Source: an uncultured Gammaproteobacteria bacterium (GTDB taxonomy: Bacteria; Patescibacteriota; Patescibacteriia; UBA1558; GWA2-36-10). From it: a stretch of 50,368 bases of DNA. The position numbers and the translations under genes were made by a program. The notes beneath the pieces are model-generated. The model worked only from the letters and a program-made list of their open reading frames with translations. It was not told the origin of the DNA and searched no databases. Shown here in pieces: positions 24,767-27,647 of the stretch; the stretch's first letter is position 1, and each line of letters begins with the position of its first letter. Where the stretch lies: the NCBI GenBank assembly GCA_964533435.1, contig CAZHLU010000001.1, forward strand, positions 1-50,368, written 5' to 3'.

Positions 24767-25555
24767 TTAAGCAACCTTAAGCTTTTTAAGTTCTTTAAGT
24801 AATAATGGATTAAGCTGTCTATTGCTAGCTAAAACTGAAGTAGAATCTTTAGACCAGGTTTTGCCCTGCCAATCAGTAATCATACCACCGGCCGCTTTAA
24901 CTAACATGATACCAGGAGCAACGTCCCAAATTTTTGGTCCAGAAACAATTAAGCTATCAATATTACCACTAGCTACCATGGCTAGTTCTAGGCTAGTGCT
25001 GCCAAAGTGTCGACAGTCATGCGTATTTAAATGATAGTATTCGTAAGCTTTAAAAGCTTTTTTATTGTCGGCTAAAGAACTGCCGTGGCAATAACACATA
25101 AAAATATCTTTAGTATTTTTATGTTTAGCAACTTCTAATTTATGTCCATTTTTGTAAGCTTTTTTATGTGTAGCCCAATATAATTCTTTTAGCATTGGCA
25201 CATAGATAACGCTCATGACTAATTTGTGATCATGCATTAAAGCGATGGCTACAGTAAACAAAGGATTATGAATAGCAAAATTATTAGTACCATCTAATGG
25301 ATCGATAATCCATTGATATTCTGAAGACTGATGATTGGCACCAAATTCTTCTGATAAAAAATTTATTTTAGAAAAACGTTTTTTTAATGTAGTTAAAATA
25401 ATTTTTTCAGATTGTTTATCGCATTTGGTGACTAGTTCGTGGCGGCTTTTATGAGTAGCATTGTTGCGTTGAAATTTATTAAATTCTTTAGCTAAATATT
25501 CACCAGCTTCTACGGCGGCATATTTGGCTTGTTCTAATTCTAACTTGTATATCAT
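24767..25555 (-). CDS. inositol monophosphatase family protein
   Basis: WIIDPLDGTNNF and GSTSLELAMVASG motifs. Confidence 0.85.
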   Translation of the reverse strand: MIYKLELEQAKYAAVEAGEYLAKEFNKFQRNNATHKSRHELVTKCDKQSEKIILTTLKKRFSKINFLSEEFGANHQSSEYQWIIDPLDGTNNFAIHNPLFTVAIALMHDHKLVMSVIYVPMLKELYWATHKKAYKNGHKLEVAKHKNTKDIFMCYCHGSSLADNKKAFKAYEYYHLNTHDCRHFGSTSLELAMVASGNIDSLIVSGPKIWDVAPGIMLVKAAGGMITDWQGKTWSKDSTSVLASNRQLNPLLLKELKKLKVA

Positions 25556-26046
25556 ATTATTTCGTTTAACAAAATTAATTGAGCTTTTAGATTATCTAAG
25601 TTTATTATAGCAAAAGTTGGGTTATAGCGGATATTGGCAACATTACCAGGATTTAGTATTTTAGTATTTTGAAATTTTTCTTCCCAGGGTTGATGACTAT
25701 GTCCATGTAGGGCTAAGTCGTAATATTGTGGTTTTTGTTCTAGTATCTTTTTTAGTATTTCTGGATAGTGGGAAAAGATTATTTTTTTGCCGTTAAGCTC
25801 AATTTCACCAAATACTTGCCAGATTTTAAGTTTAGAAAATATACTTAGATCCAGGCCATCATCAGCGTTTCCTTTGACTGCAAATACAGGTAGATTTAGT
25901 TTATCAAGTTCAGCCCAGGCTTCCTTAGTTTGTAAATCACCAGTACAAATTAAATAATCAATTTTGTTATTTTGGATATAATTTAAAGCCTTGCTTAAAT
26001 TGGCTAAATTATCGTGAACATCAGATATTACTGCTAAACTTGGCAT
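25552..26046 (-). CDS. metallophosphoesterase (YfcE/MJ0936 family)
   Basis: 164 aa with VISDVHDN, GDL, GNAD and HGHSH motifs. Confidence 0.8.
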   Translation of the reverse strand: MPSLAVISDVHDNLANLSKALNYIQNNKIDYLICTGDLQTKEAWAELDKLNLPVFAVKGNADDGLDLSIFSKLKIWQVFGEIELNGKKIIFSHYPEILKKILEQKPQYYDLALHGHSHQPWEEKFQNTKILNPGNVANIRYNPTFAIINLDNLKAQLILLNEII

Positions 26047-26124
26047 AGTATAGACATTATAACATAAGCTAAGCTCGTGAAGAAAGTCTTGACAGTTAAA
26101 ATATTAGAGAGTTAAAATATAAGT

Positions 26125-26399
26125 AACGATGATTGTGTGAAAGCCCGCGAAGGCCTAAACAACAGTTGTGTTGTAGCCAGCTGGTCAGTAAAAATCTGGG
26201 TTTGTACACCAGAACCAGTGCCGATCACGCACAATGGTGATCTAGCGGACGAGAAGGTCGCACCCCGACCTGTAGCTAAGGCGGAATCAAGAAGGTTCCC
26301 GCAAAGATGGCAACATTGCCGAAGCTCAGGGTGGCTGGGTTGCTTCAATCCAGAACACGGTAACACGATCAATCGTGCCTTGCTTCGGCAAGGCTTTTT
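26125..26399 (+). ncRNA. orphan G+C-rich structured RNA, class not recognised
   Basis: TTGACA (26089-26094), 18 nt, TAAAAT (26113-26118). Multiple hairpins closed by GATTGTGT/ACACGATC (26131-26138/26363-26370). Terminator GCCTTGC-TTCG-GCAAGGC plus T5 (26377-26399). No SD or plausible ORF. Confidence 0.6.
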
Positions 26400-26405
26400 C
26401 TTTAT

Positions 26406-27647
26406 CTATAAATATTTTTTGGCCGGAAAGTCATCTGGCCAATGTTGTTGTTTTTTAATTTCTTCGCTACTGGCATTAGGAGCATATTTATAATTTTTCC
26501 CATAACCAAAGTCTTTCATTAGTTGGCTGGGAGCATTGCGCAGTACTAAGGGTACGCCTAAATGACTAGTGGTTTTAGCATCAAGCGCTGCTTTAGCATA
26601 GCTAGTGTAAATAGCATTTGATTTTGGTGCTTGCGCTAAATAAACTACCAGTTCAGCCAAAGCAAGTTTACCTTCAGGCATACCGATAAAATGCACAGCA
26701 TCTTTAGCAGCAGTAGCAAGTATTAGGGCTTGTGGATCAGCTAGGCCAACATCTTCAGAAGCAAAGCGAATTAGGCGTCTAACAATGTATAAAGGATCTT
26801 CGCCGGCCTCTAGCATGCGGGCTAGCCAATAGAGAGCAGCATTAGGATCAGAGTCACGTAAACATTTGTGCAAAGCCGAAATAATATTATAATGTTCTTC
26901 TCCATTTTTATCATAATAAAGTACAGAACTTTGAATAGCCTCGCGAATATCAGCTTCGGAGAGCTCGCAATTTTCTTTGACTGAGGCAGCAATTTCTAAA
27001 GCAGTGAGTAATTTACGAGCATCGCCACCAGCAAAAGAAAGTAGTATTTTTTCAGCAGCTTCATTTAGAGTTATTTTTTGTTTACCCAAGCCCTGATCTT
27101 CGTCTGTTAAAACTTGTTTTAATATTTTTTTTAAATCAGTAGTGGTTAAAGATTTTAGGGCTAATACACGGCAGCGAGAAAGTAAGGCCGAATTAATACT
27201 AAAAGAAGGATTTTCAGTAGTAGCACCAATTAAGGTTAAAGTACCATTTTCAACATAAGGTAAAAGTACATCTTGTTGAGCTTTATTAAAGCGGTGAATC
27301 TCATCTAAAAATAATAAAGTTTTAGTTTTTAAAAAATCAGCATCTTGGCGAGCGACGTCGGCAATTTTTTTGATTTCAGGCGTGCCAATCAAGACGGCGC
27401 TAGTAGCGATAAATTTATAATTTAATTCTTGACTTAAAATTTTAGCTAAAGTTGTCTTGCCTACACCTGGTGGTCCCCAAAAAATTAAGGAGCTTAAACT
27501 TTGGTTTTTAACCATTTGGCTTAAGATTTTATCTGGTCCTAAAATATGCTCTTGCCCATAGAATTGGGAGAGTTTTTTAGGGCGCGCCCGGTCAGCTAAA
27601 GGTTTATTATCGCTCATAAATTTGACTTTATTTAGGCATCTTAACAT
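26406..27647 (-). CDS. rarA: replication-associated recombination protein A (AAA+ ATPase)
   Basis: GPPGVGKTTLA Walker A, LFLDEIHRFNK, and an MgsA C-terminal domain. Confidence 0.9.
   Translation of the reverse strand: MLRCLNKVKFMSDNKPLADRARPKKLSQFYGQEHILGPDKILSQMVKNQSLSSLIFWGPPGVGKTTLAKILSQELNYKFIATSAVLIGTPEIKKIADVARQDADFLKTKTLLFLDEIHRFNKAQQDVLLPYVENGTLTLIGATTENPSFSINSALLSRCRVLALKSLTTTDLKKILKQVLTDEDQGLGKQKITLNEAAEKILLSFAGGDARKLLTALEIAASVKENCELSEADIREAIQSSVLYYDKNGEEHYNIISALHKCLRDSDPNAALYWLARMLEAGEDPLYIVRRLIRFASEDVGLADPQALILATAAKDAVHFIGMPEGKLALAELVVYLAQAPKSNAIYTSYAKAALDAKTTSHLGVPLVLRNAPSQLMKDFGYGKNYKYAPNASSEEIKKQQHWPDDFPAKKYL

Follow-up and report, generated by a model that had tools for sequence, protein, structure and literature searches.

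Ribosomal protein L20 binds 23S ribosomal RNA (rRNA) through its globular domain at the junction (H40/H41) that helix 40 forms with helix 41, and represses its own operon through messenger RNA (mRNA) structures that mimic this junction (PMC1865079, PMC1888825, PMC2672003). The known L20 leaders, namely the E. coli rpmI-rplT operator, the Bacillus infC leader (RF00558) and the L20 motif of Deltaproteobacteria, have in common with the rRNA site two G-C pairs in succession together with an AA dimer (PMC7247131). Such leaders are short cis elements of the infC-rpmI-rplT transcript that copy the junction only, and in Bacillus the mimic is followed by a terminator. A second parallel, by analogy only, is 6S RNA, a free-standing RNA that sequesters an abundant protein, RNA polymerase, by imitating its nucleic-acid ligand, open promoter DNA. 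To our knowledge, the only known cases of rRNA mimicry are short cis-acting stretches of mRNAs for ribosomal proteins, and no description of free-standing copies of rRNA domains was found in the literature searched. The subject of this analysis is an orphan RNA gene at positions 26126-26376 (plus strand) of a 50,368-nucleotide stretch of DNA (hereafter the window; contig CAZHLU010000001.1 of assembly GCA_964533435.1) from an uncultured member of the Patescibacteriota. Judged by sequence and comparative structure, the RNA is a colinear miniature copy of the sub-domain of 23S domain II that is closed by H36 (E. coli 23S about 812-1195), and it may serve as a decoy for L20.

Read from 5' to 3', the RNA comprises a closing helix (P1) that corresponds to H36, the junction GAAA, variable hairpins at the place of H37-H39, GAGA, H40, AGA, H41 with UAA/GAA (an internal loop of the UAA/GAN type), H45, GGUA and the returning strand of P1. 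The helix order, the junctions GAAA, GAGA, AGA and GGUA, and the architecture of H41 are those of 23S. In the Rfam large-subunit (LSU) structure lines for a relative's 23S, H41 consists of 4 base pairs (bp), a bulge of 1 nucleotide (nt), 3 bp, UAA/GAA and 3 bp; its 3' strand is directly adjoined by H45, gAgA precedes H40 and AGA follows it, GAAA comes after the 5' strand of H36 and GGUA before its 3' strand, all as in the orphan. The H36 strand and its junction read CUCccC-GAAA in the Rfam structure line and CUCCCC-GAAA in E. coli. A model built solely from the orphan family (R2) returned H40-H41 as its single top match in the 23S genes of three relatives (G026, 36.4 bits, E 1e-7; G034, 27 bits, E 1.7e-5; G001, 17.6 bits, E 0.003), although the H42-H44 insert of about 146 nt had to be skipped to reach it. 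In rrlH of E. coli K-12 the match scored 28.2 bits with an E-value of 2e-6 over 23S positions 957-1166, the next-best standing at 0.5, and across the four 23S genes the next-best matches all had E-values above 0.1. The full-length model R3 aligned with 23S colinearly through H40, H41, H45 and GGUA (16.3 bits, E 0.0013).

The orphan differs from its counterpart in being a separate gene of about 250 nt between protein genes rather than part of an rRNA gene, in lacking both H42-H44, which form the L10/L11 stalk base of 23S, and the long H38, with a cap and one or two short hairpins in their stead, and in having a shorter H40 loop. It is the platform that encircles the GTPase centre of 23S, with the centre itself taken out. 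Its helix sequences are distinct and covary on their own, and the orphan is accessory whereas 23S is universal. Probably, the RNA folds like the rRNA sub-domain. The likeness of the 5' GAAAGCCUGUGAAGG of some members to the E. coli 23S H46 stretch AAGCCUGUGAAGGU is left unexplained by colinearity; a circular permutation relative to 23S, raised by this likeness, was rejected in favour of the plain colinear arrangement. Two other resemblances were also set aside, a sarcin-ricin loop in GACGAGAGG, which is instead the end of H39 with J39/40, and an RNase P-like GAAAGUC...CGGUA, whose bases are the H36 junctions of 23S.

An earlier inspection of the DNA, the sequence-only reading, had described an orphan structured RNA of unrecognised class and had found in its CCTGTAGC element a faint likeness to the Alu domain of signal recognition particle (SRP) RNA. 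This element is really the 5' strand of the H41 copy. Of the hairpins proposed there, ACAACA/UGUUGU, CUGGU..ACCAG and GAUCAC/GUGAUC are present, whereas GGUCG/CGACC and GGCA/UGCC compete with a helix favoured by the comparative data, CCUG-U-AGC-UAA-GGC with GCC-GAA-GCU-CAGG. The long-range closing helix placed at 26131-26138/26363-26370 proved to be real, covarying and part of the longer P1 (26126-26138/26363-26376).

The comparative data come from a family of 13 members in the Parcubacteria/Minisyncoccia, consisting of the window, genomes G034, G068, G011, G026, G191, G097, G052 and G044, and contigs L023, L044, L053 and L056. The first homologue lies in G034 at the site between the metallophosphoesterase gene and rarA, where the sequence-only reading had suggested looking; it retains promoter, terminator and helices with compensatory changes, and carries insertions and deletions that break any reading frame. 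Members beyond G034 were located by covariance models, while fixed DNA-pattern searches of genome, metagenome and viral collections returned mostly chance matches and few true members. With 12 members aligned to R3, standard pairs fill 97.6% of cells; shuffles give 82.7%, and sliding the partners brings the share to 28-45%. Both sides have changed in 15 of 25 pairs, and none of 500 shuffles reaches the observed values. These figures lean towards structure in that the alignment was fitted to the model. An independent MAFFT/RNAalifold run recovers the same helices. The core of the family reads GAC-GAGA-GGG(U)-loop-(A)CCC-AGA-CCAG-U-AGC-UAA-GGY ... RCC-GAA-GCU-CUGG, with a hairpin directly behind it and GGUA and the 3' strand of P1 after that. 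UAA is invariant (12/12 members), GAA is kept in 11/12 and AGA is nearly invariant; the two G-C pairs adjoining UAA/GAA are likewise invariant in all 12, while the neighbouring pairs covary. The hairpin at the H39 place shows compensatory change, G011 and L053 differing as GAUCGG/CCGAUC versus GCUCGG/CCGAGC. A protein-coding reading was rejected: stop codons occur in all six frames in most members, and the two stop-free frames of the window match no Pfam family and are not kept in relatives, no reading frame being conserved across the family.

Window 26126-26376 is thus a free-standing, sigma-70-promoted, terminator-ended non-coding RNA gene of about 250-275 nt, or 26089-26399 with promoter and terminator included. 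The earlier calls of a TTGACA-18-TAAAAT promoter (26089-26118), of a canonical terminator (26377-26399; 7-bp stem, UUCG loop, U5) and of a position between two minus-strand genes, encoding a metallophosphoesterase and RarA/MgsA, all hold. The promoter layout is the same in the syntenic homologue of G034, a terminator of this type closes each family member, and transcription probably starts at about 26124-26126, at the foot of P1. The RNA segment has a G+C content of 52% versus 35% for the genome (G000, a 0.93-Mb assembly in 96 contigs, 91% complete), and the computed folding energy of the plus strand is -104 kcal/mol (z = -4.7), a stability that none of 200 shuffles attains. Neither a further copy of the RNA gene nor a flanking repeat was found in G000. 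Coordinates are collected in Table 1.

Table 1. Features of the orphan RNA gene and its surroundings, in window coordinates.
Feature	Position	Strand	Basis or remark
Metallophosphoesterase gene, YfcE-type	25552-26046	-	flank of the RNA gene
Strain-variable segment with promoter, RNA gene and terminator	26048-26412	.	wastewater metatranscriptome contig (run X9) joins 26047 to 26413 via 32 other letters; X5 shows matching loose ends
-35 box TTGACA	26089-26094	+	read from sequence; box and 18-nt spacer also kept in G034 and G191
-10 box TAAAAT	26113-26118	+	read from sequence; 18-nt spacer after -35
P1 5' strand ACGAUGAUUGUGU, counterpart of 23S H36 5' strand	26126-26138	+	pairs with 26363-26376; 7/11 modelled pairs compensatory; position relative to GAAA as in 23S
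Junction GAAA, same four bases as after 23S H36	26139-26142	+	GAAAG invariant in 10 aligned sequences
Small hairpin GCC-CGCGAA-GGC at H37 place	26143-26154	+	weakly kept; not consistently formed in distant members
Two variable hairpins (ACAACA/UGUUGU; CUGGU..UCUGG/CCAGA..ACCAG) at place of long H38	26159-26218	+	number and sequence differ among members
Hairpin GAUCAC/GUGAUC at H39 place	26223-26242	+	place assigned by colinearity
Conserved UAGCGGAC-GAGA, counterpart of H39 end and J39/40 (gguC-gAgA in 23S)	26243-26254	+	alignments; 23S structure line
H40-like mini-hairpin (A)GG-loop-CCC, then junction CGA	26255-26268	+	AGA in 23S and all other members
H41-copy 5' strand CCUG-U-AGC-UAA-GGC(G)	26269-26283	+	architecture identical to 23S H41; covariation
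Variable cap replacing H42-H44	26284-26316	+	31 to about 125 nt in the family versus about 146 nt in 23S
H41-copy 3' strand (U)GCC-GAA-GCU-CAGG	26317-26330	+	covariation; 23S alignment
H45-like hairpin abutting H41: 3-bp base GUG/CAC and CUGGGUUG-CUU-CAAUCCAG	26331-26358	+	3/3 base pairs of the base covary; R3-23S alignment extends through H45
Junction GGUA, same four bases as before 23S H36 3' strand	26359-26362	+	family and 23S comparison
P1 3' strand ACACGAUCAAUCGU, counterpart of H36 3' strand	26363-26376	+	covariation
Intrinsic terminator GCCUUGC-UUCG-GCAAGGC and U5, 7-bp G+C-rich stem	26377-26399	+	sequence and fold
rarA/mgsA gene	26406-27647	-	flank of the RNA gene

The gene is accessory and strain-variable. 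Carriers number 7 among 86 genomes of the order and 2 among 150 other sampled genomes of the class; both sets are samples, and search filters lose weak matches. In G001, the closest species, the flanking proteins are 87% and 93% identical to those of the window, yet only 51 bp occupy the RNA site, and the site holds 18-51 bp across the sister species G001, G022 and G029; the more distant G034, with flanks of 76% and 87% identity, has the RNA at the same site. The join of 26047 to 26413 in a wastewater metatranscriptome contig shows that the strain with the gene co-occurs with a very close one that lacks it. Contigs of four metatranscriptome libraries cover the gene, and one of them, 189 nt long, falls entirely within it and comes from a separate study of sediment; these contigs fit transcription of the gene, short of proof. 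In G052 and G044 a tRNA-Ala(GGC) gene with its terminator immediately precedes the RNA gene (L083:1310-1400; L084:1700-1780).

What such an RNA might do is suggested by the site that it copies. The preferred reading, to which a probability of roughly 0.45 is given, is that the RNA is a trans-acting decoy or sponge for L20, plus or minus L13 and L21, off the ribosome. L13 and L21 are surface neighbours of L20 and, like it, early 50S assembly proteins. The RNA would adopt the fold of the rRNA sub-domain and work away from the ribosome, L20 would be captured at the copy of the H40/H41 junction together with L13 and L21, and the free pool of the three proteins would thereby be tuned, adjusting both their autoregulated synthesis and 50S assembly. 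Binding by L20 is suggested because the GG/CC pairs beside UAA/GAA are invariant while their neighbours covary, because UAA, GAA and AGA are nearly invariant, and because the L20 leaders mimic the same junction, whose two G-C pairs and AA dimer the orphan imitates too. Some slight support comes from rplT, the L20 gene, which lies downstream on the same strand at 2 kb in G026 and at 5 kb in G011. As in the Bacillus leader, the mimic is followed by a terminator; unlike the leaders, the orphan copies the whole sub-domain, is free-standing with no ribosomal-protein gene attached, and yields no score with RF00558. From 6S RNA it differs in ligand and fold, and in that 6S RNA is near-universal.

Several observations weigh against an L20 decoy, or against the likeness on which it is built. 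The likeness to 23S emerges from structure-aware models only, blastn-short and nhmmer searches by sequence alone having found no significant match to 23S, and the Rfam L20_leader and LSU models leave the region unscored at E <= 10. The lean of the R3 alignment figures towards structure counts here as well, and in the H40 helix GGG and CCC hardly vary, such that covariation speaks neither for nor against it. One would hardly expect the regulator of a universal protein to be so sparse, or to be missing in sister species and in a strain that co-occurs. As rplT is far away in G191 and G044, its proximity in the two genomes G026 and G011 may go back to one accident of inheritance. Lastly, L20 is named only as the known primary binder of the copied junction, and no L20 operator comes near the copy in size, a sign, perhaps, that the real ligand is a set of several proteins or a different factor.

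This last point leads to the rival that survives best, in which the H36-H41/H45 surface traps or diverts a factor other than L20. Candidates are a toxin or nuclease that targets rRNA, a modification enzyme, an assembly factor or helicase, and a phage-encoded ribosome-directed protein, and the gene would then be defence- or conflict-like. A self-contained promoter-terminator module of patchy, strain-variable, accessory occurrence would suit such a role, as would a copy that exceeds the minimal L20 site by H45, the GAAA and GGUA junctions and the end of H39. A different self-promoted, G+C-rich cassette at the same site in G003 points the same way. This cassette (L077:2060-2480, at a site syntenic to window 26047-26405) consists of a TTGACA promoter, an open reading frame of 106 codons and a hairpin terminator, and is unrelated to the RNA; with a different self-contained module in G003, the gap between the metallophosphoesterase gene and rarA is a hotspot at which expression modules are swapped. 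Another ligand in place of L20 is nonetheless the less likely, since no conserved protein-coding neighbour was found in any context and no member on viral contigs, and since the nucleotides that do not vary are those that the literature names for recognition by L20. We also know of no toxin or enzyme that targets H40-H41/H45.

A cis-acting ribosomal-protein leader or attenuator, in which bound L20 would decide, on the pattern of the Bacillus infC leader, whether transcription passes the terminator into downstream genes, is improbable. The H40/H41 mimic runs directly into an intrinsic terminator, as in the L20 leader of B. subtilis (PMC1865079), the next gene is on the strand of the RNA in G026, G011, L023, G052 and G044, and rplT follows at 2-5 kb in two of these. 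Against a leader stand the window, G034 and L044, where the next gene is convergent and nothing is left to regulate. Elsewhere the downstream genes all differ (smpB, mfd, a clpB-like gene and a gene for a membrane protein), none being infC, rpmI or rplT; rplT lies hundreds of kb away in G191 and G044 and on another contig in G097, and no alternative antiterminator pairing was seen. As a separate matter of gene order, rplT has a transfer-messenger RNA (tmRNA) gene upstream of it, on its own strand and at a distance of about 0.85-1 kb, in three genomes (G026:C1:510339-513005; G011:C10:4724-10190; G001:C1:31674-33343), the tmRNA gene being preceded immediately by smpB in G026, and the orphan RNA gene of G026 and G011 lies further upstream of tmRNA-rplT in the same orientation.

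Two readings that take the likeness to 23S at face value are weaker still. A decaying 23S gene fragment, either a pseudogene or a horizontally acquired scrap without function, would be in keeping with the similarity to rRNA and with the variable intergenic spot, but is very improbable given that compensatory changes keep the helices across several families of the class, that neat capping hairpins replace H42-44 and H38, that a new closing helix, promoter and terminator are kept in all members, and that the 23S of the lineage itself is no closer a match to the sequence than E. coli 23S. Even less credible is a working ribosome piece supplied in trans to a fragmented or specialised 23S. The colinear copy of a whole sub-domain with native junction nucleotides might invite this idea; the copy is, however, without the essential stalk base, and the gene is dispensable between strains. 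Moreover, nothing is missing from this region in the 23S genes of the carriers G026 and G034 (346.9 bits, model positions 949-1344), that of G034 being identical around H39-H41 to the 23S of the non-carrier G001, and because carrier 23S is intact here the RNA is not a substitute for a lost rRNA piece.

The least probable reading, a divergent SRP RNA, tmRNA, RNase P RNA or 6S RNA, draws on the failure to detect SRP RNA, tmRNA and 6S RNA in the 91%-complete assembly and on a size near that of Bacillus-type SRP RNA, and it founders on an RNase P RNA elsewhere in the genome, on tmRNA genes elsewhere in relatives that include carriers, on a lineage without Ffh or FtsY to bind an SRP RNA, on a branched fold unlike that of 6S RNA, and on the absence of the orphan gene from most relatives. 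The searches themselves bear out the earlier judgement that the RNA is none of these, and SRP RNA is excluded altogether. Rfam returned only chance matches (such as rhtB and SNORD69) at gathering score and at E <= 10, outside the gene or antisense to it, so no family matches the gene itself and the orphan status stands. RNase P RNA has no match here, the genome's own gene lying on contig C62 (215 bits); no tmRNA model matches the region, while canonical genes occur elsewhere in five relatives, three of which (G026, G011 and G034, at 105-121 bits) also carry the orphan, and ARAGORN calls no tmRNA in G000. RF00013 (6S RNA) has no match in the region or in 5 genomes, and the SRP models RF00169 and RF01854 have none in the region at E <= 10 or in 41 genomes of the order.

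The whole SRP pathway is seemingly missing from the lineage. The Ffh M domain (SRP_SPB) was found in none of the 41 genomes of the order, and a true GTPase of the SRP54 type (Ffh/FtsY) in none of 5 close relatives and 121 genomes sampled across the class, the best match reaching about 29 bits and covering the P-loop only; in G000 the DTAGR motif occurs only in L31. No statement that this lineage lacks the SRP pathway was found in the literature searched.

Further observations concern the assembly and its annotation. The 23S rRNA, tmRNA, smpB and rplT genes were not found in G000, though present in close relatives, and are probably in unassembled parts. A second orphan structured RNA of about 340 nt, with its own promoter and terminator, lies between cold-shock and zinc-ribbon genes on the minus strand of G000 (C2:35955-36295); blastn-short found no likeness between it and 23S. 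The listed rarA open reading frame begins 10 codons upstream of the start common to relatives (M11), and the gene is likely 26406-27617. Contig L039 is the same contig as G068:C57, placed in the window's own order, and the label 'uncultured Gammaproteobacteria bacterium' of the bin is probably wrong; the carrier contig L023 bears the same label.

It is tentatively suggested, with rather less than an even chance of being right, that the Patescibacteria, or Candidate Phyla Radiation (CPR), carry an undescribed class of accessory genes, that is, free-standing miniature copies of single protein-binding 23S domains that capture ribosomal proteins or ribosome-directed factors in trans, with the orphan as the member for the L20/L13/L21 platform (H36-H41/H45). 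A strain-variable, separate gene for a copy of an entire 23S sub-domain would be rRNA mimicry in trans-acting form, and its RNA, at about 250 nt, would lend itself as a compact natural model for an rRNA sub-domain that folds autonomously and includes its L20 platform. The finding bears on the number of 'orphan' structured RNAs in metagenomes that are copies of rRNA domains unflagged by family libraries, on whether decoys of ribosomal sites serve generally as accessory or conflict tools, and on the way in which ultra-small CPR bacteria, with one rRNA operon, keep their ribosomal proteins in balance with it. If the suggestion is true, bacteria with tiny genomes would gain a swappable means to throttle or protect ribosome assembly.

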